From assembly GCA_964510455.1 (NCBI GenBank), contig CAZECO010000003.1, forward strand, positions 1-61,592: a DNA stretch of 61,592 nucleotides, given 5' to 3'. Each line of letters begins with the position of its first letter. Position 1 is the stretch's first letter. Positions 15,701 through 45,316 of the stretch are shown here, piece after piece. The stretch comes from an uncultured Actinomycetes bacterium (lineage in GTDB: Bacteria > Actinomycetota > Actinomycetes > S36-B12 > GCA-2699445). The translations under genes were made by a program, and so were the position numbers. The notes beneath the pieces are model-generated. The model was not told where the DNA came from. It ran no database searches and saw nothing but the letters and a program-made list of their open reading frames with translations.

Positions 15701-15743
15701 ATGCGCGGGGATGCCGACATGCCGAGATGGGCAGTCCCGGTAT

Positions 15744-15767
15744 TTACTACACTAGATACCGTGAATA
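15744..15767. promoter_or_regulatory. Candidate operator TTACTA-N12-TGAATA
   Basis: AT-rich 6-12-6 motif upstream of the HTH/nirK operon, similar to the sites at 21828 and 33021. Confidence 0.5.
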
Positions 15768-15810
15768 AACTGGTCGGCATGGAACAGCGTCGCCCGCACT
15801 TGGAGGGGCC

Positions 15811-16542
15811 TTGAGCGCCGCTCGCGGGCCCGCCCCCGTCCGCCGCAGCGCCGCCGCGCCCGACCTCTCGGCGGCGCGTGCGCGCCTGCTGGAGCACGTG
15901 CAGCAGCATCAGGGCGATCTCACCGTCGACGAGGTGGCCCGGGAGTTCGACCAGCACCCGAACACCGTGCGCGAGCACCTCGAGGCCCTGGTCGAGGGCG
16001 GCCTGGTGACCCGCGAGCGCATCGCCGGGCCGGGGCGCGGCCGCCCGGCCTGGCGCTACCGGGCCAGCCAGTCGCTGCGCGAGCCCGATCCGCGGGTGCG
16101 CGAGTACGGGGCGCTCGCCGGTGCGCTGGCGGCGCACATCGCGGCACACAGCCCGGATCCGCAGGCGGAGGCACGAACCGCGGGGGAGCGCTGGGGGCGG
16201 GCGCTGGTCGACGGCGGCGCGGGCGAAGCAGGCCTCGACCCCGCCGGCGTCAGGCGCGCGCCCCGTGGTCGGCCCGCCGCCCGGCGACGCGTCGTCGAAC
16301 TGTTGGCCGAGCTCGATTTCGGCCCGCGCGCCAACCGCGCCGACACAAGGATCGTGCTCACGACGTGCCCCCTGCTGGATGTCGCCAAGCGCCATCCCGA
16401 GGTGGTCTGCGCCGCGCACGAGGGAATGGTCGCGGGCGCACTGGACAGCCTGGGCGCGCCCTCCGACGGGGTCGCCCTCACGCCCTTCGGCGCCCCGGAC
16501 GGCTGCATCCTCGTCTTGCAAGCGCCCCGGGAGAGGCCGTGA
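15811..16542 (+). CDS. Winged-HTH transcription regulator with three C-terminal Cys (ArnR/SufR-like)
   Basis: HTH 'LTVDEVAREFDQHPNTVREHLEALV...GRGRPAWRY'; Cys spacing C-x13-C-x2-H-x28-C. Confidence 0.8.
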   Translation: MSAARGPAPVRRSAAAPDLSAARARLLEHVQQHQGDLTVDEVAREFDQHPNTVREHLEALVEGGLVTRERIAGPGRGRPAWRYRASQSLREPDPRVREYGALAGALAAHIAAHSPDPQAEARTAGERWGRALVDGGAGEAGLDPAGVRRAPRGRPAARRRVVELLAELDFGPRANRADTRIVLTTCPLLDVAKRHPEVVCAAHEGMVAGALDSLGAPSDGVALTPFGAPDGCILVLQAPRERP

Positions 16543-17651
16543 CCGCGCCGGCGATCACCGCCCGCGGACCCATCACGGCCGGCACGCGGACGACGATTCC
16601 CCGGCGCCGCCTGGTGCTTCTGGGCCTCGGTGGGATCAGCCTGCTGGCCGGGCTGAACGCGGGCCTGCTGCTTGCCGGCCTACCGGCCCCGATCCGCCTC
16701 GAACGGCTCGAGGCCGTGCACGGACCGCTGATGCTGCTGGGCTTCCTCGGCACCCTCATCGCCCTGGAGCGCGCCATCGCGCTGCGCACCCGGTGGGCGC
16801 TGCTGGCCCCGGGGCTGCTGGGCGGGGGCGGGCTCCTGCTCATCTCGCCGCTCCCGGAGTCCGCCGGCCACGCCGCCCAGACGCTGGGCGCGGCCGCGCT
16901 CTTCGGGGTGTACGCCGCGCTGTGGCGCCGCGGCGGGTCGGAGGCGCTGCTGATCCAGTGGCTCGGGTCGGTGCTCGCGGTGAGCTCGGCATTGCTGTGG
17001 TGGGCCGGGATCCCGACCGGTGCGATCCTGCCCTGCATCGCCGGATTCCTGGTGCTGACGATCGCCGGGGAGCGGCTGGAGTTGGCCCGCGTCGGCGGCC
17101 CGGACCCCGGGGCGGTGCGGCAGTTCGCGATCGCCACCACGCTGGCGGTCCCGCTCGCCGGGGCGGCGCTGCTGTGGCCCACGCCCGGCACGGAGCTGTT
17201 CGCCGGGACGCTGCTGGTCATCGCGGCCTGGTTGGCCCGACACGACGTGGCCGTGCGCCTCGTGCGGGGCACCGGGCTGCCGCGGTACGTGGCGGTGAAC
17301 ATCCTGGCCGGGATCGCGTGGCTGGCGGTCTGCGGGCTCACGCTCCTGCTGCTGGGTCCGCAGCACGACGGACCCGGGTACGACCTTGCGATCCACGCGG
17401 TCGGCCTGGGGTTCGCGATGTCGATGGTGCTGGCGCACGCCCCGATCATCCTGCCGGCGGTCCTGCTGCGGCCCCTGCCGTACCGGCCGGTCCTGTACGC
17501 CGCGACCGTGCTGCTGCAGGGCTCCCTGCTGCTGCGCGCCGCCGCGGATGTGCGCGAGCTCGGGTGGGCGTGGCAGGCCGGCAGCGCGCTCAACGTGGTC
17601 GCGGTGCTGGCGTTCCTGCTGATCTCCGTGACCCTGGTGGTGCGGCGATGA
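16539..17651 (+). CDS. Polytopic membrane protein with intramembrane His (NnrS-like)
   Basis: About 12 hydrophobic segments, 'HGPLMLLGFLGTLIALERA' and 'HAVGLGF..MVLAHAPIILP'. GTG overlaps the upstream stop. Confidence 0.75.
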   Translation: MTAPAITARGPITAGTRTTIPRRRLVLLGLGGISLLAGLNAGLLLAGLPAPIRLERLEAVHGPLMLLGFLGTLIALERAIALRTRWALLAPGLLGGGGLLLISPLPESAGHAAQTLGAAALFGVYAALWRRGGSEALLIQWLGSVLAVSSALLWWAGIPTGAILPCIAGFLVLTIAGERLELARVGGPDPGAVRQFAIATTLAVPLAGAALLWPTPGTELFAGTLLVIAAWLARHDVAVRLVRGTGLPRYVAVNILAGIAWLAVCGLTLLLLGPQHDGPGYDLAIHAVGLGFAMSMVLAHAPIILPAVLLRPLPYRPVLYAATVLLQGSLLLRAAADVRELGWAWQAGSALNVVAVLAFLLISVTLVVRR

Positions 17652-20197
17652 CCCGGGCGGGCTGGCATGTGCGGATGGGTTCGGTCGTGCTGGCGTGGAT
17701 CGCCGCGGCCGGCATGGTGTCGGTGCTGCATCGGCAGGTGCCCGCCGCGGGCTGGCTGATGGTGCATCTGCTGCTCCTGGGGGCGGTGAGCAACGCGCTG
17801 CTGGTGTGGAGCTGGCACTTCACGCAGGCGGTCCTGCGGCTGCCGGCGCCGGACCGGCGTGCGGAGGCGGCGCGGCTGATCGTTTTCAATGCGGGCGCGC
17901 TGGCCGTGGTCGGCGGCGTGATCGCCGATGCGCAGGGCCTCGTGGCGCTGGGTGGAGCGGTGGCGGCGGCCGCGGTCGTGACGCATGTGGTCGTGCTGGT
18001 CCGGGCGCTGCGCGGGGCGCTGCCGAGCCGGTTCGCCGTGACCGTGCGCTTCTATGTGGCCGCCGGAGCGCTGGCCGTGCCGACGATCGGCCTCGGGGTC
18101 GCCCTGGCCCGGGGCGCGCTGTCCGGCCTGGACCCCTCCGGAGTCGTCCTGGCCCACGCCGCGCTCGGCCTGCTCGGCTGGGTGGGACTGCCGATCCTGG
18201 GCACCCTGCTGACCCTGTGGCCGACCATGCTGCGCACCCGCATCGCCGGCACCGCGGAGCGGCACGCCCGGCAGGCCCTGCCCGCACTGGTGCTCGCGAC
18301 GCTGGTCGCCGCCGGCGGCCTGCTCGGCGGCGCGCCGATCATCGGCGGGCTCGGTGTGGCCGCGTACCTCTTGGCCGCGGTCTGGAGCATGGGGCCGATG
18401 GTGACGGAGATGCGCCGGCGCCCGCCCGCCTCCTTCGCCACCTGGTCGACGCTGGCCGGTGTCTGTTGGATCGGCGCGGCCCTGTTCGCCTTCGCGGTCG
18501 CGCTGCTCGCCTCGACGGGTTCCGCGGGCGGCAGGCTGACGGCCGCAGCCGTCGTCGGCGGGGTGCTGCAGGTGCTGCTCGGCTCGCTGTCCTACCTGCT
18601 GCCGGTGATGGCGGGCGGCGGGCCGGTCGCGGTCCGGGCCCGCAACGAGCGGGTCGACCGGGCGATGGCCCTCCGATTGGTGGTGACCAACCTGGCGCTG
18701 GCGCTATGCGTGTTGCCGAGCCCGTCGGCGGTGCGCGTGGTGGCGTCCGTCGCGGTGCTCGGCGCACTCGGCGCAACTGTCGCCGCGATCGGTACCTCGA
18801 TACGCGGGCAGCGTTCCGCGGCGAAGGGCGACCCGGCTGCTGTTCCGCCGGGCTGGGCCGCCCGTCACGGCTCGGGGCTGGCCGTCGGCCTGGCGATCGT
18901 GATGCTCGCGCTGTCGGCCGGCGTCGCCTTCGACCCTGCGGCGCTCGGCAGCGGTGCCTCGGGCGCCGCCCCCTCGGACGCCGGAGCCGCGCCGACGGGC
19001 GTCACGACCCGAGTGGAGGTTGCGGTCGAGGGAATGCGCTTCGTCCCGGACACCATCAGCGTCCCTGCCGGCAACTCCCTGGTGATCACGCTGACCAACA
19101 CCGGCGACGATGTCCACGACCTGACCTTGGAGACTGGGCAGCGCACCCCGCGCCTGAGCCCGGGCGAATCCGCGACGATGGACCTCGGGGTGATCGGCCG
19201 CGACCTGTCCGGTTGGTGCTCCATCGCCGGCCATCGGCAGATGGGAATGGTGCTGGCCATCGACGTGCCGGGGTCACAGACGGCCACCCATGATCATGCG
19301 AGTTCGGCGGACGGCGAGGCGCCGCGGGTGGACCTGATGGCGTCCCCGGGCGCCGGCTTCTCGGCCCGCGACGCGCGCCTGGCCCCGGCTCCGCCGGAAC
19401 GCGAGCACCACGTCCGCCTGGTCGTCACGGAGGTCGTCGCGGAGGTCGCCCCCGGGGTGCGGCAGACCCGCTGGACGTTCGGCGGCACGGTCCCGGGACC
19501 GGTGCTGCGGGGGAAGGTCGGCGACACGTTCGTCGTCACGCTCGTCAACGACGGCAGCATCGGCCACTCCATCGACTTCCACGCCGGCGCGCTGGCGCCC
19601 GACGGTCCGATGCGCACGATCGCGCCCGGCGAGGAGCTGGAGTACCGGTTCACCGCGAACCGGGCGGGGATCTGGATGTACCACTGCTCGACCATGCCGA
19701 TGTCGATGCACATCGCCAACGGGATGTTCGGGGCCGTCGTGATCGACCCGCCGGACCTGCCCGAGGTGGACCGGGAGTTCCTGCTGGTGCAGTCCGAGGC
19801 CTACCTGGGGCCGCAGGAGGGCACCGCAGACGCGGAGGCGATCGCCGCTGGCGAGGCGGACCTGGTGACGTTCAACGGGTACCCGATGCAGTACGACCAC
19901 GCGCCGCTGCAGGCCGGCGTCGGCGAGCGGATCCGCATCTGGGTGCTCGCCGCCGGGCCGAACCGGGGCAGCTCGTTCCACGTCGTCGGCGGCCAGTTCG
20001 ACACCGTCTACCGGGAAGGGGCGGTGGAACTGGCCCCCGGAAGCGGGGGAGCGCAGGCCTTGGGCCTGTTCCCGGCCCAGGGCGGATACGTCGAACTGGT
20101 GCTGCCCGAGGCCGGCAACTACCCGTTCGTCACGCACGCCATGAGCGATGCCGAGCGCGGGGCGCACGGCATCCTGCACGCCGGGCCGGTCGGCTGA
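17648..20197 (+). CDS. nirK: Copper nitrite reductase fused to an N-terminal polytopic membrane domain and a cupredoxin domain (849 aa)
   Basis: Cupredoxin type-1 site 'WCSIAGHRQMGM'. NirK motifs 'HSIDFHAG', 'MYHCSTMPMSMHIANGM', 'SSFHVVG' and 'YPFVTHAM'. ATG at 17648 is coupled to the upstream stop. Confidence 0.85.
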   Translation: MTRAGWHVRMGSVVLAWIAAAGMVSVLHRQVPAAGWLMVHLLLLGAVSNALLVWSWHFTQAVLRLPAPDRRAEAARLIVFNAGALAVVGGVIADAQGLVALGGAVAAAAVVTHVVVLVRALRGALPSRFAVTVRFYVAAGALAVPTIGLGVALARGALSGLDPSGVVLAHAALGLLGWVGLPILGTLLTLWPTMLRTRIAGTAERHARQALPALVLATLVAAGGLLGGAPIIGGLGVAAYLLAAVWSMGPMVTEMRRRPPASFATWSTLAGVCWIGAALFAFAVALLASTGSAGGRLTAAAVVGGVLQVLLGSLSYLLPVMAGGGPVAVRARNERVDRAMALRLVVTNLALALCVLPSPSAVRVVASVAVLGALGATVAAIGTSIRGQRSAAKGDPAAVPPGWAARHGSGLAVGLAIVMLALSAGVAFDPAALGSGASGAAPSDAGAAPTGVTTRVEVAVEGMRFVPDTISVPAGNSLVITLTNTGDDVHDLTLETGQRTPRLSPGESATMDLGVIGRDLSGWCSIAGHRQMGMVLAIDVPGSQTATHDHASSADGEAPRVDLMASPGAGFSARDARLAPAPPEREHHVRLVVTEVVAEVAPGVRQTRWTFGGTVPGPVLRGKVGDTFVVTLVNDGSIGHSIDFHAGALAPDGPMRTIAPGEELEYRFTANRAGIWMYHCSTMPMSMHIANGMFGAVVIDPPDLPEVDREFLLVQSEAYLGPQEGTADAEAIAAGEADLVTFNGYPMQYDHAPLQAGVGERIRIWVLAAGPNRGSSFHVVGGQFDTVYREGAVELAPGSGGAQALGLFPAQGGYVELVLPEAGNYPFVTHAMSDAERGAHGILHAGPVG

Positions 20198-20262
20198 TCT
20201 CCGAGGCCGGGGCCGGTGACGTTCAGAAGCGTCTGCAGGTCATGACCGGCAGCCCGGCTAGC

Positions 20263-21441
20263 CTACGAGGCAACGGGCAGCAGGCGCTCGATGTCGTCGG
20301 CGAACCCAAAGCTGCCGGGCTGGTAGGCGCACAACGGGTCGTCGCCGAGCAGGTCGCCGGTGGCGCCAAAGGCCCGCGGGCGCGAACCCCCGCACACCCG
20401 GCGGAACTCGCAGGCTCCGCAGCGGTCAGTCGGCGCGTCGGGATCGCGCAGCTGCCGGAAGAGCGTCGAGTCCCGGTAGATGCTGGTCAGTGGCCGGTCC
20501 TGCACGTTGCCGGCGGACACCGGGAGGAATCCGCTGGGGTACACCTGTCCGGTGTGGGAGACGAAGGCGAATCCCCGGCCGGCGCTGATCGGCAGGGGCG
20601 GGCGGCGAGGTCCCTCATCGTTCTCAGGCAGCCCCAACTCCCGCATCCGCTGCACGAGGTAGTCGTATTCGACACCGGTCAGTCCGGCTCCCTTCAGCGG
20701 GATGCCCCGGTCAGCGAGGATGCGCCGTTGGAAGCTGACGCGACGGAACGCGGGCGCCTCGGTGGTCTTCACCGACACGATCCGGTTGGCGTCGTAGCAG
20801 AAGTGCAGAACGTCCTCGGTTTGCTGCGCCCTCAGTTGCGGCAGGTGCGTTCCGCGGCCGGTGGGGACGAGGAAGAACAACGACCAGGTCAGCGCTCCGC
20901 GGGAGTGGATCAGGGCCAGCAGGTCGGGCAGTTGGCGGAAGTTGGAGGGCGTCACGGCTGTGTTGATCTGGACCCGCAGCCCCAGCTCCTTGGCCCTCGC
21001 CCACCCGGCCAGCGTGAGGTTGAAGCTCCCCTCGACGCCGCGGAACCCGTCGTGGGTGGGAGCATCGGCGCCGTCGATGCTCAGCGAGATCGCGCTCGCG
21101 CCGGCCTCCCGCAACCGGCGCAGGTTCGGCTCGTTCAAGGCGGGCGTCCCGGACGGCGACACCGCGACCGGCAGCCCGATGCCCGCCCCGTGGGCTACGA
21201 GTTCGTACAGGTCGGGCCGCATGAACGGGTCCCCGCCGGTGATGACGAAGAAGGGGGGCGGTTGGCCGACCGAGCGGACATCGTCCATCAGGTCGCACGC
21301 CTGCTGCGTCGTCAGCTCCCAGGGGCTGCGCTGCGGGATCGCCTCCGCCCGGCAGTGCAGACAGGCCAGCGCGCAGGCCCGCGTGGCCTCCCAGATGACG
21401 ATGAACGGGCGCTGGGCCAGATCCATGTGCGCCGTGCGCAT
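20263..21441 (-). CDS. Radical SAM/SPASM-type protein (TIGR04053-like, NirJ/Ahb-related clade)
   Basis: CALACLHC in 'IVIWEATRAC..C..CRA' and C-terminal 'CGACEFRRVCGGSRPRA...DPLC'. Confidence 0.85.
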   Translation of the reverse strand: MRTAHMDLAQRPFIVIWEATRACALACLHCRAEAIPQRSPWELTTQQACDLMDDVRSVGQPPPFFVITGGDPFMRPDLYELVAHGAGIGLPVAVSPSGTPALNEPNLRRLREAGASAISLSIDGADAPTHDGFRGVEGSFNLTLAGWARAKELGLRVQINTAVTPSNFRQLPDLLALIHSRGALTWSLFFLVPTGRGTHLPQLRAQQTEDVLHFCYDANRIVSVKTTEAPAFRRVSFQRRILADRGIPLKGAGLTGVEYDYLVQRMRELGLPENDEGPRRPPLPISAGRGFAFVSHTGQVYPSGFLPVSAGNVQDRPLTSIYRDSTLFRQLRDPDAPTDRCGACEFRRVCGGSRPRAFGATGDLLGDDPLCAYQPGSFGFADDIERLLPVAS

Positions 21442-21485
21442 GACGGGCCGCCCGGTCCTACCGACGCCCGCCCCCGGGCCAGGCA

Positions 21486-21785
21486 TCAGGGGGTGCGGAC
21501 CAGCCGCAGCCGCCATTCCTGCGGCCCCCGCTGCAGGTACTCGACCTGAATCGCGCCGTCGTAGCGCTGCTCGGCCTGGGCCAGCAGCGGCAGCGGGTCG
21601 TGCGGGGCGATCAGCACCAGCCCGCCTCCCGGCGCGATGGAGTCCAGGGCGCCGAAGATCGTGGCATGCCTGATCGCGTGCGGGATGGCTCGGGCGTCCA
21701 GCACCGGCTCGGCATCGTGCTCGTGCCCGCAGCCGCACTGGTGCTCGGCCTGCGCCAGCGGGATCTCGGTACGTGAGTCGGTCAT
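21486..21785 (-). CDS. DUF2249 domain protein
   Basis: 'VLDARAIPHAIRHATIFGAL...LIAPHDPLPLL..QRGPQEW' with an N-terminal 'HQCGCGH'. Confidence 0.85.
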   Translation of the reverse strand: MTDSRTEIPLAQAEHQCGCGHEHDAEPVLDARAIPHAIRHATIFGALDSIAPGGGLVLIAPHDPLPLLAQAEQRYDGAIQVEYLQRGPQEWRLRLVRTP

Positions 21786-21827
21786 CAGGTTCCCTTTCGT
21801 CATGGGTCAATCAGCCTAGGATTCAGT

Positions 21828-21851
21828 TTACTACGGTGCTTGCCGTAAAAA
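21828..21851. promoter_or_regulatory. Candidate operator TTACTA-N12-TAAAAA
   Basis: AT-rich 6-12-6 motif upstream of DUF2249 and the radical SAM gene. Confidence 0.5.
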
Positions 21852-21870
21852 AAGATATGGGACGGCCAGG

Positions 21871-22650
21871 TCAACCCAGCGCCAGCGCCGTACCGATCAC
21901 CACGAGCACTGACACCAGGGACTCGACCGCGCCGATCACCCCGGGCCTGCTCCCGGCGGGCACGGCGTAGGCGCGCGTCGCGGCGGCGCCGAAGGGCAGG
22001 AGCAGCCACGGCGACAATAGGCCCAGGCCGAGCGCGGCGGTGTGGAACACCCGCGACGCCACCGCCCACCGGCGGTCCCCGGCCTCCCTGATGAGCGACT
22101 TGACGTGCAGAACGGATCCGGTGAAGAACACCAGGCAGATGCCCGCCGCCGCCCACGCTTCGGCGGGCGGTCGGGCGTCGATCGTGATGGCCCACATCAG
22201 CGGGACCGCCAGCGCCGCCTGGGCCACCAGCAGCAGGTCGTTGCCGACCCCGCGCTCCCGTCCGGCCCGGGCCAGCCACAGGCTGGCCGACCAGGCGAGG
22301 GCGAGCACCGGCGCCAGCACGATCAGCCAGGGCCGAAGCACCAGCAGGACGGCGGCGGGGACTAGGGCCATCGCAATCCAGGGTGCTGCTGCCGACAGCT
22401 CGCGCTTGGCGAGCCGCGACCACGTGCCGCGCCGCCATCGGATCACCACCGCCCGGCTGGCGAAGAAGCTGGCCGGGTAGGACAGGAACCAGGCCAGGGC
22501 GAAGCACACGCCGATCGCGGTCCAGCCCGCCAGGATGAACACCAGCAGGACCGGGACGGCCAGGAACGCCCAGGCGCCGTGCTGGTTGGGGATGGCCAGG
22601 CTCCGCCGGCGCGGACGCGCCTTGGGCGGCGCCGACGTCGTGGTGGTCAC
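21871..22650 (-). CDS. YwiC-like membrane protein
   Basis: 'IPNQHGAW' signature, multiple TM segments and 'FFTGSVLHVKSLIRE'; start overlaps the narI stop. Confidence 0.85.
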   Translation of the reverse strand: MTTTTSAPPKARPRRRSLAIPNQHGAWAFLAVPVLLVFILAGWTAIGVCFALAWFLSYPASFFASRAVVIRWRRGTWSRLAKRELSAAAPWIAMALVPAAVLLVLRPWLIVLAPVLALAWSASLWLARAGRERGVGNDLLLVAQAALAVPLMWAITIDARPPAEAWAAAGICLVFFTGSVLHVKSLIREAGDRRWAVASRVFHTAALGLGLLSPWLLLPFGAAATRAYAVPAGSRPGVIGAVESLVSVLVVIGTALALG

Positions 22651-23390
22651 CCGACCTTCTCCCAGCCGCGCCTCGGGGGCCGGTTGCCCGCGTCGTGCGG
22701 TCCGCGGTCCCGGTAGACGACGTACGGCCGGAACAGGTAGCCGATCGGCGCGCTGAAGGCGTGCACCAGCCGGGTGAACGGCCACACCATGAACAGCGCC
22801 AGGCCCGCGACGGCGTGCACGCGGAACGCCAGCGGCGCACCCGCCATCAGCTCCGGCTGCGGGTTGAGCAGGAAGATCGACCGGAACCAGACCGAGACGT
22901 CCTCGCGGTAGTTGTGGCCCTCGCCGATCACCCCGGCGCCGACCATGGTGGCGATGACGCCCAGGCAGATCGCCGATACCAGGAACACGTACATGGTCTT
23001 GTCGTTCTTCGTCGTCGCGGCGAAGACCGGGCCCACCGTGCGGCGGCGGTAGATGAGCAGCGCGATGCCGGCGACGGTCGCGAACCCGGCGAAGGCGCCC
23101 AGCGTCACGGCGAAGAAGTGGTACACGGATTCGGAGATCCCCAGCGCCTCGGTCCAGGACTCGGGAACGAGCAGCCCCATCACATGCCCCATGGCGACGG
23201 CCAGGATGCCGAAGTGGAACAGCGGGCTGGCGATGCGGATCAGCTTGCGCTCGTACAGCTGGCTGGAGCGGGTCGTCCAGCCGAACTTGTCGTACCGGTA
23301 GCGCCAGATCGTGCCCACCACGAACACCGCGATCGTCACGTAGGGCAGCACCACCCACAGCAGGATGTCCAGGGTGGTCGAATCGCTCAT
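22647..23390 (-). CDS. narI: Respiratory nitrate reductase gamma subunit
   Basis: 'WRYRYDKFGWTTRSSQLYE', 'LFHFGIL..GH' and 'WPFTRLVHAFSAP'. Confidence 0.97.
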   Translation of the reverse strand: MSDSTTLDILLWVVLPYVTIAVFVVGTIWRYRYDKFGWTTRSSQLYERKLIRIASPLFHFGILAVAMGHVMGLLVPESWTEALGISESVYHFFAVTLGAFAGFATVAGIALLIYRRRTVGPVFAATTKNDKTMYVFLVSAICLGVIATMVGAGVIGEGHNYREDVSVWFRSIFLLNPQPELMAGAPLAFRVHAVAGLALFMVWPFTRLVHAFSAPIGYLFRPYVVYRDRGPHDAGNRPPRRGWEKVG

Positions 23391-24025
23391 CGCCGGGCCC
23401 CGATCGTGACCAGCGGGAGGGTCGCCGAGTACGGCTCCAGCCCGACCCGCTCCACCGGCGGCCCGCCCGCGGCCAGTTGCGCCATCCGGGCGCGGACCTC
23501 GGGGGTCAGCGCAGGCAGGGTCGCGATGACTGCGTCGACCACATGCGAATAGGGCGAGTCCAGACCGACCAGGGCCTCGCGCAGCAGCCGCACCGGTCCG
23601 GCGTGCTCGGCGAGCAGCGCATCGCCGGTGAGCCGGTCGCCGACCGCGGCGAACTCCAGCACGACCGACAGGTGGTCCGCCAGCTCCTTGTCGCCCGGGT
23701 CGAAACCCGCCTCCAGGTAGGCCTGCTTGAAGCGCAGGATCGCCACCCCGCGGTTGCGGGTGTCGCCGTCGGTCCAGTACGTCAGGTACGGGCAGGCGCG
23801 GCGCTTCATGTCGAAGACCGACACATGGTGCCGCTGCACGTCCATGAGCGGCGTCTCGGCGAGGTGATCGAGGAACGCGCCGAGCGGATCGCCCAGGGCG
23901 GGCGGCAGGGTCGCGACTGCCGCGCCGATCCGCGGCAGGCGGGCCGCGAGCTCCTCGTCCGGGTACCACAGCAGCCACGATGCGGCTAGCCGCGCCGCCG
24001 CCACCTGATCGGCGTGATGGTTCAT
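23387..24025 (-). CDS. narJ: Nitrate reductase molybdenum cofactor assembly chaperone
   Basis: 'YLTYWTDGDTRNRG' and 'ELADHLSVVLEFAA'; lies between narH and narI. Confidence 0.95.
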   Translation of the reverse strand: MNHHADQVAAARLAASWLLWYPDEELAARLPRIGAAVATLPPALGDPLGAFLDHLAETPLMDVQRHHVSVFDMKRRACPYLTYWTDGDTRNRGVAILRFKQAYLEAGFDPGDKELADHLSVVLEFAAVGDRLTGDALLAEHAGPVRLLREALVGLDSPYSHVVDAVIATLPALTPEVRARMAQLAAGGPPVERVGLEPYSATLPLVTIGARR

Positions 24026-25698
24026 TCGTCCTCCCCCTTGGTGCGCCGCGGCGGAATCGTCGGGATGCCCAGCGGCACCCCGACGCCGTCCCAATTCAGC
24101 AGGCCGACCCGGGCGCCGCGATCCTCCGCGGGCACGATCGTCTCCGACGTCTGCCGCTGCTTCAGGGCGTGGAACGTCTCCACCGCCACGGGCTGCGGAC
24201 GTCCCGACGCCTCGCCGAACGGGCCGGACTCGTACATGCCCGGGGCGCCCTCGTAGTCCAGCGAGCAGGCCAGCTCGTCCAGCGTCCGGGCCGTCTCGGT
24301 GTGCGCCTTCGGGATGACGTAGCGGTCCTCGTACTTGGCGATCGCGAGCAGCCGGTACAGCTCGTACATCTGCTCCTCGGTCATCCCGACCGCCTCGCAC
24401 AGCTCGGGACGCGCCTCGTTGCCCAGGTTGTGGTCGCGCATGTACGAGCGCATCGCCGCCAGGATGTGCAGCGAACGCTTGACCGGCACCACGTCGCCAG
24501 CGGTGAACAACTCGGCGAGGTACTCGATCGGGATCCGCAGCGAGGACAGCGCCCCGAACAGGTTCCCGGCGTCCTCGGCGTCGTGGCCGGTGTCCCGCAG
24601 CGCGTCCACGACCGGGGACAGCGGTGGGATGTACCAGACCATGGGCATCGTCCGGTACTCCGGGTGCAGCGGCAGGGCGACGCGATACTCGCAGGCCAGC
24701 CGGTAGACCGGCGACCGGCCCGCCGCCTCGATCCAGTCGTCCGGGATGCCGTCCCGCCGGGCGGCATCGATAACGGCCGGATCGTTCGGGTCCAGCAACA
24801 GGTCCAGTTGCGCCTCGTACAGGTCGCGCTCGTTGGGTGTCGAGGCGGCCGCGGTCACGCGATCGGCGTCGTACAGGAACAGTCCGAGGTAGCGAAGCCG
24901 GCCCACGCAGGTCTCCGAGCAGACGGTCGGCAGCCCAACCTCGATCCTGGGGTAGCACATGGTGCATTTCTCGGCCTTGCCAGTGCGGTGGTTGAAGAAC
25001 ACCTTCTTGTACGGGCAGCCCGAGACGCACATCCGCCAACCGCGGCAAGCGTCCTGGTCGACCAGCACGATGCCGTCCTCACTGCGCTTGTACATCGCCC
25101 CGGAGGGACAGGACGCGACGCAGGAGGGGTTCAGGCAGTGCTCGCAGATCCGCGGCAGGTAGAACATGAACGCCTGCTCGAACTCCAACTTCACGCGATC
25201 GCCGACCTCGCCCTTGATCTTCTTCAGGACCGGGTCGTTGGGCGCGAGTTCGGGGCCGCCAGCCAGATCGTCGTCCCAGTTGGCCGACCACTCGATCTTC
25301 ATCGGCTTGCCGCTGATCAGCGACTTCGGCCTGGCGACCGGGGTGTGCTCCCCCAGCGGGGCGGAGATCAGCGTGTCGTACTCGTAGGTCCACGGCTCGT
25401 AGTAGTCGCTCATGAGCGGAAGCTTGGGGTTGCTGAAGATCTTCGAGAGCCGATGCAGCCGCCCGCCGGCCCGCAGCCGCAGTTTCCCGCGCTTGACGAT
25501 CCAGCCGCCCTGCCACTTCTCCTGGTCCTGATACGTGCGCGGGTAGCCCTGGCCGGGCCGGGTCTCCACGTTGTTGAACCACGCGTACTCCATGCCGGCC
25601 CGGTTGGTCCAAGCCTGCTTGCAGGTCACCGAGCACGTGTGGCACCCGATGCACTTGTCGAGGTTCATCACCATGCCGACTTGCGCCATAACCTTCAT
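24022..25698 (-). CDS. narH: Respiratory nitrate reductase beta subunit
   Basis: 'MKVMAQVGMVMNLDKCIGCHTCSVTCK', 'CEHCLNPSCVASC' and 'CRGWRMCVSGC'; GAGGAG RBS. Confidence 0.98.
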   Translation of the reverse strand: MKVMAQVGMVMNLDKCIGCHTCSVTCKQAWTNRAGMEYAWFNNVETRPGQGYPRTYQDQEKWQGGWIVKRGKLRLRAGGRLHRLSKIFSNPKLPLMSDYYEPWTYEYDTLISAPLGEHTPVARPKSLISGKPMKIEWSANWDDDLAGGPELAPNDPVLKKIKGEVGDRVKLEFEQAFMFYLPRICEHCLNPSCVASCPSGAMYKRSEDGIVLVDQDACRGWRMCVSGCPYKKVFFNHRTGKAEKCTMCYPRIEVGLPTVCSETCVGRLRYLGLFLYDADRVTAAASTPNERDLYEAQLDLLLDPNDPAVIDAARRDGIPDDWIEAAGRSPVYRLACEYRVALPLHPEYRTMPMVWYIPPLSPVVDALRDTGHDAEDAGNLFGALSSLRIPIEYLAELFTAGDVVPVKRSLHILAAMRSYMRDHNLGNEARPELCEAVGMTEEQMYELYRLLAIAKYEDRYVIPKAHTETARTLDELACSLDYEGAPGMYESGPFGEASGRPQPVAVETFHALKQRQTSETIVPAEDRGARVGLLNWDGVGVPLGIPTIPPRRTKGEDE

Positions 25699-25861
25699 CT
25701 GGTCGTCCTCCTCGTGCGTGGGGAGCATTGGGCCGTCCGGAATCGATGATGATGCGCGACGCCGGAGGATGGCGATTCTGGGCGGATTCGACCGGATGTG
25801 GCTGATTCCAGGCGCCAATCGTGCAACCGCCGACGATCTGCGACTCGGCTGCCCTGGTCCA

Positions 25862-28800
25862 TCAGTACGTCACGTCCTGCGAGCGCCGGCGGATCACGGT
25901 GATCTCGTCGCGCTGATTGCCCGTCGGACCGAGGTAGTTCATCGCGAAGGTCAGTTGCGCATAGCCCCCGATCACATGCGTCGGTTTGATCAGCAGCCGC
26001 GTCAACGAGTTGTGGATGCCGCCGCGCTTCCCGGACGTCTCAGCTTGCGGCACGTCCACCGTACGGTCCTTCGCGTGGTACATGTACACCGTCCCCGCGG
26101 GCATCCGGTGGCTGACGATCGCCCGGGCGACGACCACGCCGTTGCGGTTGTACGCCTCGATCCAATCGTTGTCCTTCACCCCGATCGCCTCAGCGTCCTG
26201 CGGGCTCATCCACAGATCCGGCCCGCCGCGGGACAGCGACAGCATGAACAGGTTGTCCTGGTACTCCGAGTGGATCGACCACTTGGAGTGCGGCGTGAGG
26301 TACCGCACGGTCACCTCGCGCCCGGCCCCGGTGCCCTGGTCGCCATACAGCCGGTGCATGTTCAGCGGCGGCCGGAAGGTGGGCAGCTGCTCGCCGACCT
26401 CGCTCATCCAGTCATGGTCGAGGAAGAAGTGCTGCCGTCCGGTGAGGGTGTGCCACGGCTTGAGGTGCTCGACGTTGATGGCGAACGCCGTGTACCGGCG
26501 GCCGCCGTGCTCGCTGCCGGACCACTCGGGGCTGGTGATCACCGGTACCGGCCGTGCCTGGGTGTCGGCGAACGTGATCCGCTTGCCCTCGTGCTCCTGC
26601 GCCAGGAACGCCATGGGCTGGCCGGTGCGCCGCTCCAGATCCTGGAAGCCCTCCACCGCGACCCGGCCGTTTGTGGTGCCGGACAGCGCCAGGATCGCCT
26701 CGCACGCCTGCACATCGGTCACCAGCGCTGGCCGCCCGGCAGCCGGGCCGGACGGGATGACGCCGTTGATCCGGGCGAGCAGGGCGACCTCGGGGGAGGT
26801 GTTGACGGCCACGGCCTTGTGGTTCGTGCCGACCGTGTCCAGCAGCGGGCCCAGTGCGGACATCTTGGCGCCGATCGCGGTGTAGTCGCGCTCGACGGGG
26901 ATGAACTTGGGCGCGGTGGCGCCGGGGATGAGGTCGACCTCGCCGGTGCGCCAGTCACGGACCACGCCGCCCGGGACGGCCATCGCGTCCGGGGTGTCAT
27001 GGGTCAACGGAATGCTCATCACGTCCTGCTCGACCCCGAGGTGCCCCTCCGCCAGCGTCGAGACCGCCCGGCCCAGGCTCTGGAAGATCTCGTAGTCGCT
27101 GCGGGTCTCCCACGGCGGGTCGATGGCCGGCGTGAAGGCGTGCACGTAGGGGTGCATGTCGGTGCTGGACAGGTCGTGCTTCTCATACCAGGTCGCCGCG
27201 GGCAGCAGGATGTCGCCGAACAGCCCGGTGGACGTCATGCGGAAATCGATGGAGACCAGCAGATCGAGCTTGCCGATCGGCTCGTCGTCGCGCCAGGTCA
27301 CGTCCTTGGGCCGCTCGGTCTCGGGCGTCTCGTCGGCGCGGACGGAGTGGTCGGTGCCCAGCAGATGCTTCAGGAAGTACTCGTTGCCCTTGCTGGAGGA
27401 GCCCAGCAGGTTTGCCCGCCAGACGGTCAGTACCCGCGGCCAGTTCTCCGGCGCGTCCGGATCCTCCACGGCGAACTTGAGATCCCCCGACTTCAACTGC
27501 TCGGTGATGTACTGCGCCACGGGTTGCCCTGCGGCCTTGGCGTCGGCCGTGATCTGCAGGGGGTTGCGATTGAAGGAGGGGAAAGACGGCATCCACCCCG
27601 AGCGGGCCGATTGCGCCAGGGTGTCCATCATGGCCATCCCCTTGAACCGACCCTCGCCCAAGGGGGACGCGAGCAGGTCCGCTCCGAGCCGGTCGTAGCG
27701 CCATTGGCTGGTGTTCACGTACCAGAAGGCTGTGCCGATCATCTGCCTGGCCGGCCGCTGCCAGTCCAGTCCGAACGCCAATTGTGCCCAGCCCGTTACC
27801 GGCCGGCACTTCTCCTGGCCGACGTAGTGGGCCCAGCCGCCGCCGTTGATGCCCTGGCAGCCGGTCAAGGTGATCATGGCCAAGAAGGTGCGGTAGATCG
27901 TGTCGGAGTGGAACCAGTGGTTGGTGCCCGCCCCGAGGATGATCATGGAGCGCCCGCCGGAGTCCTCGGCGTTCTGCGCGAACTCCCGGCCCACCCGGAT
28001 CGCCTGGGACGCCGGGACGCCGGTGATCTCCTCCTGCCAGGCGGGTGTGTACGGTGCGGGGTCGTCGTAGCCGGTCGGCCAATCGCCCGGCAGGCCGTCG
28101 CGGCCCACGCCGTACTGGGCCAGCATCAGGTCGAAGACGGTAGTCACGAGACGCTCGCCGCTGACAGTGTGGATCGGGACGGCCGGAACCCCGCGGGAGT
28201 GCACGCCGCCGCCCTCGGAGTTCTCCTGCCCGATGTCGAACCGGGGCATCAGCACCTCGAGGTTCTTCGATCCGCCAGCATGCAGCAGCGTCAGGGCCGG
28301 GTCGACCCCTTCCAGGTCGAGGTTCCACTTGCCCACCCCCGACTCGTTGAACCGGAAGCCCAGGGACCCGTTGGGAACGTGCGGCCGTCCGGCCTTGCGG
28401 TCCACCAGCACCGTCTTGAACGCCGCACCCTCGGCCGTGTCGCCCAGGTCGGCCGCAGTGAGGAACTTGTCCGCGACGTAGGCGCCGTCCTTCTCCCGCA
28501 GCGCGACCAAGAACGGCAGGTCGGAGTACTTCTTGACGTACTCGACGAACCGCGGCACCTGGCGGTCGATGTAGAACTCCTTGAGGATGACGTGCCCCAT
28601 CGCCATGCCCAGCGCACCATCGGTGCCCGGATGGGGATTGAGCCACTCGTCGGCGAACTTGGTGTTGTCCGCGTAGTCCGGCGACACCGTGACGACCTTC
28701 TGGCCCCGGTAGCGCGCTTCGGTCATGAAATGGGCATCGGGTGTGCGGGTGACCGGCACGTTCGCGCCCCACATGATCAGGTACGAGGCGTTCCACCAAT

Positions 28801-29560
28801 CGGCCGACTCCGGCACATCGGTCTGGTCGCCGAACACCTGCGGGGAAGCCACTGGAAGGTCGCAGTACCAGTCGTAGAAGCTGAGCATCGCCCCCCCCAT
28901 GAGGCTGATGAACCGGCTGCCCGCGGCGTGCGAGGCCATGGACATGGCCGGGATGGGGGAGAAGCCGAAGATCCGGTCCGGCCCGTGCTGCTTCACGGTG
29001 TGCACATGCGCGGCCGCCGCGATTTCCAGCACCTCGCCCCAGGATGCCCGCACCAGGCCACCCTTGCCCCGAGCCTTCTGGTAGCGGGCGCGGACGACTG
29101 GATCGCCGACCACCGCGGCCCAGGCGTTCACCGGGTCGGGGTGCACCCGCTTGGCCGCCCGATACGACTCGAGCAGCACGCCGCGCACGTACGGGTAGCG
29201 CACGCGGGTGGGGGAGTACGTGTACCAGGAGAAAGCCGCCCCGCGGGGGCAGCCTCGCGGCTCGTATTCGGGGGAGTCTGGGCCGACACTGGGGTAGTCG
29301 GTCTGCTGGGACTCCCAGGTGATGATCCCGTCCTTGACGTACACCTTCCAGGAGCACGAACCGGTGCAGTTGACCCCGTGCGTGGACCGCACGACCTTGT
29401 CGTGGCTCCACCGGTCGCGGTAGAACGCGTCGCCGTCGCGACCACCTACCCGGGTGACCGTCCGCTGATCGGCGGAGACCTCACCTGGGGTGAAGAACCG
29501 GCCCGCACCCACCAAGAATTCCTTCACGGCATCGGACGGGGCCTGCGGCGCGGGGCTCAT
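25862..29560 (-). CDS. narG: Respiratory nitrate reductase alpha subunit (1232 aa)
   Basis: 'DKVVRSTHGVNCTGSCSWK', 'HYVGQEK' and 'RYLTPHSKWSIHS'; GAGGAG RBS before the ATG at 29560. Confidence 0.98.
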   Translation of the reverse strand: MSPAPQAPSDAVKEFLVGAGRFFTPGEVSADQRTVTRVGGRDGDAFYRDRWSHDKVVRSTHGVNCTGSCSWKVYVKDGIITWESQQTDYPSVGPDSPEYEPRGCPRGAAFSWYTYSPTRVRYPYVRGVLLESYRAAKRVHPDPVNAWAAVVGDPVVRARYQKARGKGGLVRASWGEVLEIAAAAHVHTVKQHGPDRIFGFSPIPAMSMASHAAGSRFISLMGGAMLSFYDWYCDLPVASPQVFGDQTDVPESADWWNASYLIMWGANVPVTRTPDAHFMTEARYRGQKVVTVSPDYADNTKFADEWLNPHPGTDGALGMAMGHVILKEFYIDRQVPRFVEYVKKYSDLPFLVALREKDGAYVADKFLTAADLGDTAEGAAFKTVLVDRKAGRPHVPNGSLGFRFNESGVGKWNLDLEGVDPALTLLHAGGSKNLEVLMPRFDIGQENSEGGGVHSRGVPAVPIHTVSGERLVTTVFDLMLAQYGVGRDGLPGDWPTGYDDPAPYTPAWQEEITGVPASQAIRVGREFAQNAEDSGGRSMIILGAGTNHWFHSDTIYRTFLAMITLTGCQGINGGGWAHYVGQEKCRPVTGWAQLAFGLDWQRPARQMIGTAFWYVNTSQWRYDRLGADLLASPLGEGRFKGMAMMDTLAQSARSGWMPSFPSFNRNPLQITADAKAAGQPVAQYITEQLKSGDLKFAVEDPDAPENWPRVLTVWRANLLGSSSKGNEYFLKHLLGTDHSVRADETPETERPKDVTWRDDEPIGKLDLLVSIDFRMTSTGLFGDILLPAATWYEKHDLSSTDMHPYVHAFTPAIDPPWETRSDYEIFQSLGRAVSTLAEGHLGVEQDVMSIPLTHDTPDAMAVPGGVVRDWRTGEVDLIPGATAPKFIPVERDYTAIGAKMSALGPLLDTVGTNHKAVAVNTSPEVALLARINGVIPSGPAAGRPALVTDVQACEAILALSGTTNGRVAVEGFQDLERRTGQPMAFLAQEHEGKRITFADTQARPVPVITSPEWSGSEHGGRRYTAFAINVEHLKPWHTLTGRQHFFLDHDWMSEVGEQLPTFRPPLNMHRLYGDQGTGAGREVTVRYLTPHSKWSIHSEYQDNLFMLSLSRGGPDLWMSPQDAEAIGVKDNDWIEAYNRNGVVVARAIVSHRMPAGTVYMYHAKDRTVDVPQAETSGKRGGIHNSLTRLLIKPTHVIGGYAQLTFAMNYLGPTGNQRDEITVIRRRSQDVTY

Positions 29561-30291
29561 TCGGGACTCCTCATCGTGATCGTACGAACGGGCCGCTGAT
29601 CGCTGCGGCGCAGGTGGGCCGTGCAAACGCCCGGCCGAGGGAAGACGTCGAACCGCTCCAACTCCACCGGCTGCCCGCTGGCCTCCAGCAGTTGTAGCAG
29701 CAGGGCGGCATGGATGTCGCAGATCACGGGCCGATCCGCGACCAAGTCCGCGTAGGGGCACGACCGCAGATCGATCCGGTCGCCCAGCGGGGTGACGGTC
29801 GCCTGGAAGCCCAGGGCGGCCAGCGAATCGGCCGCCGCGAGCACGGCATCGTCCGCGCTCTGCGCGGGCCGGGGACGGTGATCCGGCTCGAGCTGCGCAG
29901 CCCAACGGCTGGCGGCTTCATGCGCAAGCGCCGCGGAGTCCGCACCCTGCAGCGCGTCCACCAGGGCGTCGGCGAGCTGCTTGCGCTGGCGCATGGCTTC
30001 GGTCTCCACCGCCCGGTACAGCCACGGCGGTCGCCCGCGGCCGACGGACCGGCCCTGCTCCCGCGTGATCCGGCCGGTTGCGAGGAGCAGGTCGAGGTGC
30101 GGACGGACGGTATTGGCGTGCAGTCCTGTCGCTGCGCAGATGCCGTCCATGGGGATCGGCGCGCCGGCCTCGGCGATCGCCCGGAAGACCGCGTCGCGTG
30201 AGGAGGACGTCTTTTCCTGGCCTCCGCTGTGGCTGATCCTGCCGAGCCGCGAAAGCGTCCTGCCGATCGCTGCGGCTGAGGCGGGGGGCAC
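29557..30291 (-). CDS. Second ArnR/SufR-like winged-HTH regulator with three C-terminal Cys
   Basis: 'GLHANTVRPHLDLL...GRGRPPWLY'; Cys spacing C-x12-C-x2-H-x28-C; stop overlaps the narG start; start codon uncertain. Confidence 0.8.
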   Translation of the reverse strand: MPPASAAAIGRTLSRLGRISHSGGQEKTSSSRDAVFRAIAEAGAPIPMDGICAATGLHANTVRPHLDLLLATGRITREQGRSVGRGRPPWLYRAVETEAMRQRKQLADALVDALQGADSAALAHEAASRWAAQLEPDHRPRPAQSADDAVLAAADSLAALGFQATVTPLGDRIDLRSCPYADLVADRPVICDIHAALLLQLLEASGQPVELERFDVFPRPGVCTAHLRRSDQRPVRTITMRSPE

Positions 30292-30651: not shown

Positions 30652-31731
30652 GTGGACATGGAAATCTTGGGTCGCACCGAGCGCGCGGTGCGGGGGCTGA
30701 CGCCGGGCTACTTCGCGCTGGTCATGGGCACCGGCATCGTGTCCGTCGGGCTCAACCTCGAGCAGCATCGGACGGCTTCACTCGTCCTGATGTGGCTGGC
30801 ATGCGGGGCCTACGCCACGCTCATCGTGCTCAACGTGTGGCGGTTCACGGCCTTCCGGGATGCGGTGGTTGAAGACTTCCAGGACCCACGGCGAGCGTTC
30901 GGCTTCTTCACCTTCATCGCTGGGACGAACGTCATCGGCGTCCGCCTCGCGACTGAGGGCTACTACGGGGCGGCGACGCCGCTGTTCGTCGTGTCCCTGC
31001 TGCTGTGGCTTGTCCTGGGATACGTCATCCCCTGGACAGCGGTGCTCGGTCGTACGGAGCGTCCCCTGGTGGCTATGGCCAACGGCACCTGGTTCATCTG
31101 GGTGGTGGCCAGCCAGTCCGTGGCGGTGGCCGCGGCCACTCTGGAGCCGGTCACTGGATCTGGGCGTCGCGAACTGGCGATCGTGGCCGTATTCGCCTGG
31201 TCCGTGGGAGTGGTCCTCTACGGTGCGGCGGGGGTCTTCGTGGCGGCCCGGATGATGCTGTACGAATTCGGTCCTGTTGACCTCACCCCGCCCTACTGGG
31301 TTGCCATGGGTGCGTGTGCGATCACCGTGCTGGCCGGGGCGCGCATCGTTGAGATGCTAGACGCCCCGATGGTCAACGTAACCCGGGGGCTGGTCGCGGG
31401 AGTGTCTGTGATGTTCTGGTGCTTCGCCACCTGGCTCATCCCGGCGCTGGTTGCCGCTGGATGGTGGCGCCACCGGCTCCATCGGATCCCGCTGAACTAC
31501 GAGGCCACGCTGTGGAGCATCGTCTTCCCCCTCGGGATGTATGCCGCGGCCGGAATCTACATCGGACAGGCCGACGAACTGCCCGTCGTGGCGGGAATCG
31601 GAGCGGGGTGGCTGCTCCTTGTGGCATTGCCCGTCTGGCTCCTCACCTTTGCAGCCATGCTGATCCACCTGGTTCGCACTGTACTGCGCACCCCCGCGTC
31701 GACCACTAGTGTGCCGGGTCCCGCCGGGTGA
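30652..31731 (+). CDS. TDT/SLAC1-family (tellurite-resistance/C4-dicarboxylate) anion transporter
   Basis: 'LTPGYFALVMGTGIVS', 'PPYWVAMGA.AIT' and 'WSIVFPLGMYAAA'. Confidence 0.85.
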   Translation: MDMEILGRTERAVRGLTPGYFALVMGTGIVSVGLNLEQHRTASLVLMWLACGAYATLIVLNVWRFTAFRDAVVEDFQDPRRAFGFFTFIAGTNVIGVRLATEGYYGAATPLFVVSLLLWLVLGYVIPWTAVLGRTERPLVAMANGTWFIWVVASQSVAVAAATLEPVTGSGRRELAIVAVFAWSVGVVLYGAAGVFVAARMMLYEFGPVDLTPPYWVAMGACAITVLAGARIVEMLDAPMVNVTRGLVAGVSVMFWCFATWLIPALVAAGWWRHRLHRIPLNYEATLWSIVFPLGMYAAAGIYIGQADELPVVAGIGAGWLLLVALPVWLLTFAAMLIHLVRTVLRTPASTTSVPGPAG

Positions 31732-45310: not shown

Positions 45311-45316
45311 GCGGTA

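Follow-up and report, generated by a model that had tools for sequence, protein, structure and literature searches.

How a Gram-positive bacterium that makes heme through the coproporphyrin pathway finishes the molecule without oxygen or peroxide is still debated; ChdC, the usual last enzyme of this pathway, needs peroxide. The question is raised by two overlapping genes in the genome of an uncultured member of the Actinomycetes (GTDB lineage Bacteria; Actinomycetota; Actinomycetes; S36-B12; GCA-2699445; assembly GCA_964510455.1). The window, by which we mean the whole stretch of DNA analysed, comprises positions 1 to 61,592 of contig CAZECO010000003.1 (61,592 nucleotides). Within it a gene for a small DUF2249 protein (21486..21785, minus strand; 99 amino acids) runs into a gene for a radical S-adenosylmethionine (SAM) enzyme of the AhbD-like TIGR04053 family (20263..21486, minus strand), inside a cluster devoted to nitrate and nitrite reduction. 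We propose, with a probability of about 0.68, that the second gene specifies an AhbD-type, oxygen-independent heme b synthase of the subtype lacking the first auxiliary cluster (AuxI), which backs up ChdC during nitrate/nitrite respiration. In facultative Gram-positives that possess the coproporphyrin pathway and none of the other Ahb enzymes, AhbD has been regarded as an anaerobic alternative to ChdC (PMC13564367, PMC12670364), so that the route is already to be found in reviews, on genomic grounds alone. As a member of a named family the enzyme itself is ordinary; the only fresh lead is its conserved pairing with DUF2249.

Family and cysteine pattern of the radical SAM enzyme

The protein matches the NCBIfam model TIGR04053 from end to end (model positions 1-366 of 366) at 457.7 bits against a cut-off of 395, and at 458.8 bits in the genome search; the Pfam Radical_SAM domain is matched at 4.5e-16. 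The next-best models are all tetrapyrrole enzymes: AhbD (TIGR04545; 304.4 bits), NirJ2 (193), NirJ (TIGR04051; 167 against a cut-off of 515) and AhbC (157). It has matches to more than 7000 proteins in the databases; those ranking highest (65-68% identical) are from uncultured Actinomycetota, followed by homologs from Streptomyces, Nonomuraea and Streptosporangium at 56-60% identity. Some database homologs are already labelled "AdoMet-dependent heme synthase" by one source. Two start codons are possible, the more likely ATG 21486 giving 407 and ATG 21441 giving 392 amino acids; residue numbers given here refer to the 392-residue form.

The radical SAM cluster motif C23-x3-C27-x2-C30 (21352..21375, minus strand) and the motif of the second auxiliary cluster (AuxII), C341-x2-C344-x5-C350-x2-S353-x17-C371 (CGACEFRRVCGGS...C; 20329..20421, minus strand), are both intact. 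None of the seven cluster cysteines varies among 29 close relatives, and the protein also keeps 90-odd residues that are invariant in the family. The first-pass annotation, whose coordinates and quoted peptide strings proved correct, had reported that the usual AuxI cysteines appeared to be absent and had quoted a second motif, which corresponds to C341, C344, C350, S353 and C371. The absence is borne out by an alignment of 144 relatives, in which the four columns that hold cysteine in full-SPASM sequences read E228 (20758-20760, minus strand), I285, S303 and S353 in the window protein. I285 and S303 lie within the stretch ISAGRGFAFVSHTGQVYPSGFLP (residues 285-307; 20521..20589, minus strand), while S353 takes the position of the fourth AuxI cysteine of full-SPASM AhbD. 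Cysteine is present at three or four of the four columns in 26 of the 144 relatives, and the series Glu, variable residue, Ser, Ser is common to the window protein and about 100 others. Since E228, S303 and S353 are invariant in the 29 close relatives, the loss of AuxI is a trait of the family and not a local defect; the idea that it marks a degenerate enzyme was rejected on the same evidence.

This pattern has been described for AhbD by Fix et al. (2023; PMC10452713). The AuxII motif CX2CX5CX20-38C is common to all AhbD proteins, the four AuxI cysteines are restricted to those of methanogens and sulfate reducers, and in AhbD from non-methanogenic archaea a conserved Glu, Ser and Ser replace three of them (C223, C274 and C324 of Methanosarcina barkeri, a numbering that we mapped through the published description of the motif and not by aligning that sequence). 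The window protein possesses the N-terminal CX3CX2C, the C-terminal C341-x2-C344-x5-C350-x20-C371 and the Glu/Ser/Ser of the AuxI-less subtype. Its "altered SPASM" domain, pointed out earlier, is therefore a published feature of the family and not a novelty.

A FastTree phylogeny of the 144 sequences places the full-SPASM proteins in one clade (support 98), from which members belonging to Actinomycetota score 525 and 574 bits with the AhbD model, above its cut-off. The window protein lies outside this clade, among the AuxI-less TIGR04053 proteins of haloarchaea, Thermus, Deinococcus and Bacillus, in a nine-row clade (support 100) that it shares with sequences from three same-class genomes and from one genome of another family. 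In the tree full-SPASM AhbD forms a sister group. The AlphaFold2 model of the enzyme (predicted local distance difference test, pLDDT, 87.6; predicted template modelling score 0.88) has as its nearest solved folds the Twitch/SPASM enzymes BlsE, PqqE, SkfB, SuiB and anSME. No close relative was detected by a sequence search of the PDB, the best match being PqqE at 2e-19. Since Foldseek returned only generic SPASM/Twitch enzymes, the structure did not separate heme from peptide substrates.

Heme supply, genomic setting and occurrence

The genome assembly (526 contigs totalling 3.9 Mb; completeness 97%; some fragments represent strain variants) contains a source of coproheme. Genes for ChdC (240 bits) and CgoX (235 bits) are adjacent on contig C118, and a ferrochelatase (242 bits), of the CpfC type by its context, is encoded on contig C7. 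No match in this assembly was obtained for the AhbA/B (NirDLGH) domain, AhbC or CgoN, and no cd1-type NirS exceeded its cut-off. With ChdC, CgoX and CpfC present and AhbA/B, AhbC and NirS not found, coproheme would arise only by the coproporphyrin route, and no client for heme d1 is apparent.

The nearest functional evidence comes from Haloferax volcanii, in which deletion of ahbD abolishes growth by denitrification or dimethyl sulfoxide respiration only, a defect that is rescued by protoheme, while the ChdC-like PitA is required aerobically (PMC5746218). The H. volcanii gene (HVO_2144) has the same neighbours (halocyanin, norB and a multicopper oxidase; PMC5746218) as a gene of Haloferax larsenii that lies in the order DUF2249, radical SAM, halocyanin, norB, HTH (helix-turn-helix) genes, multicopper oxidase. 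The H. larsenii protein scores 501.6 bits with TIGR04053 and 343 bits with the AhbD model, and is 44% identical to the window protein; by proxy of this syntenic gene H. volcanii AhbD would belong to the same NCBIfam family. It is this link, taken together with the complement of heme genes, that suggests an oxygen-independent coproheme decarboxylase. The earlier proposal of an anoxic heme-supply enzyme stands to the extent that homology (TIGR04053) and context (Haloferax synteny, coproheme from CpfC) point to an enzyme of the AhbD kind.

Such an enzyme would carry the radical SAM cluster and one C-terminal [4Fe-4S] cluster, and would receive its coproheme from the coproporphyrin-dependent pathway through CgoX and CpfC. 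By analogy with characterised AhbD, a 5'-deoxyadenosyl radical would take hydrogen from the propionates of coproheme rings A and B, each propionate would be converted by oxidative decarboxylation to a vinyl group to yield heme b, and the AuxII cluster would hand the leftover electron to an acceptor. Given that ChdC needs peroxide, the radical SAM enzyme would secure heme b under anoxic conditions, keeping it available to NarI and possibly to heme-binding membrane partners of NirK during nitrate/nitrite respiration.

A second paralog, on contig C1, is intact (442 bits), 44.5% identical and in a different clade of the tree. It adjoins an HTH-membrane-NirK-fusion operon and a DUF2249 gene. Between this DUF2249 gene and the paralog lies a cytochrome P450 gene (locus L005, 11162-12313; contig C1, approximately 45161-46312), which could specify a P450nor-like nitric oxide reductase or another heme client. 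On plasmid pDFI2 of Deinococcus ficus a P450 gene is convergent with the TIGR04053 gene, beside CbiX and cobA.

The nar/nir setting given in the first-pass annotation is confirmed by gene and domain calls. Third-position GC content and the listing of open reading frames reveal a minus-strand block in the order narG, narH, narJ, narI, a YwiC-like gene, an AT-rich gap of 85 bp, DUF2249 and radical SAM. The narG (25862-29626; TIGR01580 match at 25883-29500), narH (24022-25818), narJ (23387-24025) and narI (22647-23390) genes were assigned from Pfam and gene calls, and the YwiC-like membrane gene (21871..22650) matches PF14256 at 2.7e-17. In TGATG the stop codon of the DUF2249 gene and the first ATG of the radical SAM gene have one base, the A, in common, which suggests that the two genes are translationally coupled. 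The DUF2249 ATG is preceded by GAAAGGGA, and a further ATG occurs upstream at 21803. The radical SAM reading frame is open, and its G+C content at third codon positions (0.90) is similar to that of the adjacent genes. Convergent with it on the plus strand is the nirK operon (15811-20197), comprising genes for a winged helix-turn-helix (wHTH) regulator (15811-16542), a 370-amino acid membrane protein (16539-17651) and, at 17648-20197, a membrane-cupredoxin-NirK fusion, residues 582-843 of which match TIGR02376 (1.4e-46) and residues 453-513 Cupredoxin_1.

The candidate operator noticed earlier ahead of DUF2249 is real. Within the 85-bp gap between the ywiC-like and DUF2249 genes lies the AT-rich motif TTTACTAC-N10-GTAAAAAAA (21827..21853, plus strand), and a matching TTTACTAC-N10-GTGAATAAA (15743..15769, plus strand) precedes the HTH-membrane-NirK operon. 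Both strands of the 3.9-Mb assembly together hold just three copies of the 8-mer TTTACTAC, in each case at this or a nirK-type promoter; the third site is on contig C363, where the nirK promoter is present as a strain variant. Every site is followed after 10 bases by GTrAAwAAA. A related AATACTAC-N10-GTGGAAAAT is located at the paralogous locus on contig C1, between the DUF2249 gene and its HTH gene. The presence of so rare a motif at both promoters supports co-regulation of the DUF2249/radical SAM pair with nirK. The pair is probably expressed together with the nirK operon by way of this motif, which would be read by one of the wHTH regulators of the cluster; read-through from narGHJI-ywiC is a possible alternative or additional route. 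Simple scans of 20100-22000 disclosed neither a consensus sigma-70 promoter nor an intrinsic terminator, and the hairpin between the convergent genes is no better than those of shuffled sequences (z = -1.5).

The locus presents a clean actinobacterial case, with ChdC and two AhbD-like paralogs, no siroheme route, and a linkage to nitrate/nitrite respiration that is physical and probably regulatory, and for this reason it is a good candidate for a biochemical and genetic test.

Several further features of the locus and assembly may be recorded. The wHTH regulator bears a weak SufR-like match (30.9 bits) over most of its length, and the C1 locus encodes a paralog of it that is 50% identical. The nar block is closely preceded by a gene for an anion channel of the SLAC1/TehA type (30652-31731; PF03595, 1.8e-43), which could be a nitrite or anion exporter. 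YwiC-like proteins are encoded near TIGR04053 and nar/nir/nor genes not only here but on the Thermus thermophilus megaplasmid (L053, 2178-3275) and a Bacillus cereus plasmid (L055, 12081-12806). Contigs C363, C349, C452, C459, C460 and C7 contain copies, 84-100% identical, of the HTH, membrane, NirK, NarH, NarJ and NarI genes, and C7 also has a second narG at 91% identity; these duplicates on short contigs indicate that the assembly is a mixture of strain variants or includes a second nar/nir cluster.

Across a sample of 301 Actinomycetota genomes TIGR04053 exceeded its cut-off in 24 and narG was found in 30, with both in 8. A strict link to nitrate reductase was rejected, since 16 of the TIGR04053 genomes are without narG and 22 of those with narG are without TIGR04053; the association is moderate. 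Nineteen of the 24 TIGR04053 genomes have no AhbA/B, a tally that includes one unpublished genome (G082), which supports none of the claims made here. DUF2249 exceeded its cut-off in 18 of the 301 genomes, and was located within 3 kb of the enzyme in 3 of the 24. Two genomes (G040 and G275) possess AhbA/B and have TIGR04053 arranged in tandem with a gene that scores 439 bits as AhbC-like; to judge from this arrangement their TIGR04053 gene takes the AhbD slot. In one family (f18) all 22 genomes have a two-domain AhbA/B-like gene of approximately 354 amino acids and 10 have narG; neither TIGR04053 nor AhbD rose above the reporting threshold in any of them.

Three genomes of the same class, 8.5-9.9 Mb in size, show narGHJI and then, in divergent orientation, a gene that fuses a hemerythrin-like domain to DUF2249 (one of the three genomes has none), a gene for a small membrane protein, the radical SAM gene and lastly the NirK fusion, the start of which the radical SAM gene overlaps. 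In two of them (G054 and G024; L037 7851-8357 and L038 7864-8817) the N-terminal hemerythrin-like domain is joined to DUF2249 by a Gly/Cys-rich linker with a literal CGCGG; the fusion is followed by a membrane protein of 160-179 amino acids, and an Acg-family flavin mononucleotide (FMN) oxidoreductase (289 bits) is encoded downstream of the NirK fusion. A scan of genome contigs for related loci yielded two, one of them useful: in a metagenome-assembled genome of the Nanopelagicales (JAXLSJ010000007.1; L062 9689-11179; 65% identity) the DUF2249 and radical SAM genes are three bases apart. No nar/nir or other respiration gene lies within 10 kb of that pair, the neighbours of which are leucine/branched-chain amino-acid genes and gltX.

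Outside the phylum, plasmids that carry TIGR04053 genes came from haloarchaea, Thermus, Deinococcus and the Bacillus cereus group. On six haloarchaeal plasmids the gene is part of nirK/qNor or nosZ islands, with DUF2249 directly beside it in five. The Thermus row reads norC, norB, a 536-amino acid "nitrite reductase" gene, TIGR04053 and cytochrome c; being too large for NirK, the 536-residue product is read as a cd1-type NirS. In Bacillus cereus the neighbours are nrdDG, YwiC, FprA and Fnr. No DUF2249 gene is annotated in the Bacillus, Thermus and Deinococcus plasmid neighbourhoods of TIGR04053.

The DUF2249 partner and other explanations

The product of the upstream gene matches PF10006 at 88.9 bits against a cut-off of 29.5 (E 1.9e-25; profile positions 1-69 of 70). 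Its N-terminal CGCGH, which the first-pass annotation had pointed out, is genuine (HQCGCGHEH). A C-x-C lies 12-15 residues ahead of the domain in all of the 120 best homologs, among which CxCG was recorded 106 times, CGCGG 12 times and CGCGH seven times. C17, C19, H36, H40 and H62 are invariant in the actinobacterial subfamily (34 sequences), a set that would fit a metal site. The AlphaFold2 model predicts a folded core (residues 27-99; pLDDT approximately 96; beta-alpha-beta-alpha-beta-beta) preceded by an N-terminus of low confidence (pLDDT 56-62) that contains the CxC stretch. Foldseek gave no match to this model at E ≤ 0.001; proteins resembling TusA/SirA (2lxr, 3hz7, YeeD) rank high but weakly. 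Most likely the protein would be a small metal-binding accessory factor, acting as a redox partner, sensor or chaperone.

A bolder suggestion, which as a whole we think rather unlikely, is that the CxCG-DUF2249 protein is the dedicated partner of AuxI-less AhbD. It would bind a metal or Fe-S cluster through the five invariant residues and stand in for AuxI, taking the electrons of decarboxylation or passing on coproheme or heme, and the haloarchaeal and actinobacterial layouts would be two forms of one three-part system. The actinobacterial protein joins a CGCG-type motif to DUF2249, which suggests that the three parts may work together. Were this so, it would be clear how AuxI-less enzymes complete both decarboxylations, and the DUF2249 proteins of denitrifiers, including DrpA of Thermus, would be cofactor-supply factors and not nitrate sensors. 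The pairing bears in any case on electron disposal in AuxI-less AhbD, and its Cys/His residues provide a cheap and concrete hypothesis for a domain that recurs in the denitrification clusters of bacteria and archaea.

A number of points weigh against a heme b synthase. CgoX, which would act ahead of the enzyme, is nominally oxygen-dependent. The classic layout for peptide modification is likewise a small Cys-motif protein whose translation is coupled to that of a SPASM-type enzyme. The score with the AhbD model is below the cut-off of 500 and is made up of two stretches. A literature search for TIGR04053 was empty, and no report of a biochemically assayed bacterial member came to light. M. barkeri AhbD deprived of AuxI stalls at the monovinyl intermediate (PMC10452713), and completion of both decarboxylations by an AuxI-less enzyme is without explanation. 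ChdC, moreover, may operate anaerobically with FMN (PMC13564367). Most of the nitrate-respiring Actinomycetota sampled, to judge from the 22 of 30 narG genomes that have no TIGR04053, do without the gene. In view of the FMN option, the oxygen-dependent CgoX and the want of a CgoN match, an entirely anoxic pathway is not demonstrated.

Among the alternatives, another tetrapyrrole reaction survives best: removal of side chains in the manner of NirJ or AhbC, or formation of a modified heme for the membrane domains of the NirK fusion. The family is equally related to NirJ2, NirJ and AhbC, the Thermus gene directly follows the putative cd1-type nirS, and both divergent paralogs of the present genome stand at NirK-fusion operons, just as the same-class radical SAM gene overlaps the start of a NirK fusion. 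Nevertheless, no siroheme-derived substrate or heme d1 client is evident here, the NirJ and AhbC scores are far below that for AhbD, and the haloarchaeal ortholog acts as a heme b synthase in vivo (PMC5746218). The family is also found without NirK, beside nrdDG in Bacillus and in the housekeeping surroundings of the Nanopelagicales genome. We regard this explanation as unlikely.

Distinctly unlikely, in our estimation, is a protein-modification cassette in which the radical SAM enzyme would modify the CxCG stretch of the co-translated DUF2249 protein, for example by a thioether or other cross-link, heme not being the substrate at all. The pair does combine a cysteine motif with adjacency to a radical SAM gene, the stop of one gene overlapping the start of the other, and the constant spacing of the CxC in 120 homologs, together with the remoteness of the Nanopelagicales pair from any nar/nir gene, would suit such a role. 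So would the occurrence of TIGR03995, a family of putative "rSAM-modified RiPP" (ribosomally synthesized and post-translationally modified peptide) proteins, in the same haloarchaeal islands, the CGCGG ahead of DUF2249 in same-class relatives, and the presence of the peptide maturases SkfB, SuiB and anSME among the nearest solved folds. Rescue of the H. volcanii ahbD deletion by protoheme is, however, hard to reconcile with a substrate that is protein only, and the closest hidden Markov model families are without exception tetrapyrrole enzymes. In the vicinity of most TIGR04053 genes there is neither a DUF2249 nor a CGCGG gene, the haloarchaeal DUF2249 neighbours are free of cysteine, and in five plasmids a distance of 1-42 kb separates TIGR03995 from the enzyme gene. 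The partner itself is predicted to be a folded domain of 70 residues and not a leader-core peptide.

It is highly improbable that the gene contributes nothing in this organism and is a passenger, dispensable or in decay, that came with a mobile denitrification island. Although in Thermus, haloarchaea and Bacillus TIGR04053 genes are located on megaplasmids and on islands capable of transfer, and most narG-bearing Actinomycetota in the sample do without it, the frame is open, the codon composition is that of its neighbours, the seven cluster cysteines and 90-odd invariant residues are kept, and the second, divergent paralog is likewise intact.

Comparison with known systems

The AhbD-type heme b synthase proposed here has its closest counterpart in the haloarchaea. 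AuxI-less archaeal AhbD exhibits the same cysteine pattern, with Glu/Ser/Ser at the AuxI sites; the haloarchaeal gene likewise has a DUF2249 gene as its neighbour in a respiration island that includes nirK; and H. volcanii also has a ChdC-type enzyme for aerobic conditions. The systems differ in that a full siroheme (Ahb) route feeds AhbD in haloarchaea, whereas here AhbA/B and AhbC were not found and coproheme would be furnished by CpfC. Furthermore, the haloarchaeal DUF2249 gene is divergently transcribed, its product is Cys-free and CGCGG is carried by a separate protein; in the window CxCG is fused to DUF2249 and the gene appears to be translationally coupled to that of the enzyme.

AhbD of M. 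barkeri and Desulfovibrio vulgaris (TIGR04545), the sister group and next-best model, shares the CX3CX2C and CX2CX5C...C motifs. These full-SPASM enzymes retain the AuxI cysteines, all four of which are missing from the window protein, and AuxI is required by M. barkeri AhbD to pass the monovinyl intermediate (PMC10452713).

ChdC (HemQ) carries out the same net reaction, on the same substrate and in the same cell, as is proposed for the radical SAM enzyme. It has an unrelated fold and employs a ferryl/tyrosyl radical mechanism driven by H2O2, whereas radical SAM chemistry needs no oxidant derived from O2.

The DUF2249 protein may be compared with Thermus thermophilus DrpA and with its DUF2249 counterparts in Haloferax mediterranei, which are likewise small, single-domain, encoded in nar/nir clusters and induced during nitrate respiration. 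DrpA has been proposed to be a nitrate sensor, and a drpAB double mutant makes nitrate reductase protein that has little activity (PMC6282519), a phenotype which, by analogy, would also fit a role in cofactor supply. In H. mediterranei four DUF2249 genes are induced under denitrification (PMC11218638). For these proteins, which were proposed to be nitrate sensors, no coupling with a radical SAM gene is reported, and invariant CxC and IPHAIRHA motifs are peculiar to the actinobacterial subfamily.

Lastly, the QCGCGGH of TIGR03995 ("CGCGG family putative rSAM-modified RiPP protein") resembles the HQCGCGHEH of the window protein and the literal CGCGG of its same-class relatives, though in TIGR03995 the motif lies near the C-terminus, on a different domain. 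Genes of this family (135-139 bits; L058 471-770, L059 5584-5910) share the haloarchaeal nirK/qNor islands with TIGR04053 and DUF2249; each of the five plasmids that were searched has a single copy. The presence of TIGR03995 in this genome was considered and rejected, the model matching neither the DUF2249 protein nor anything else encoded there.

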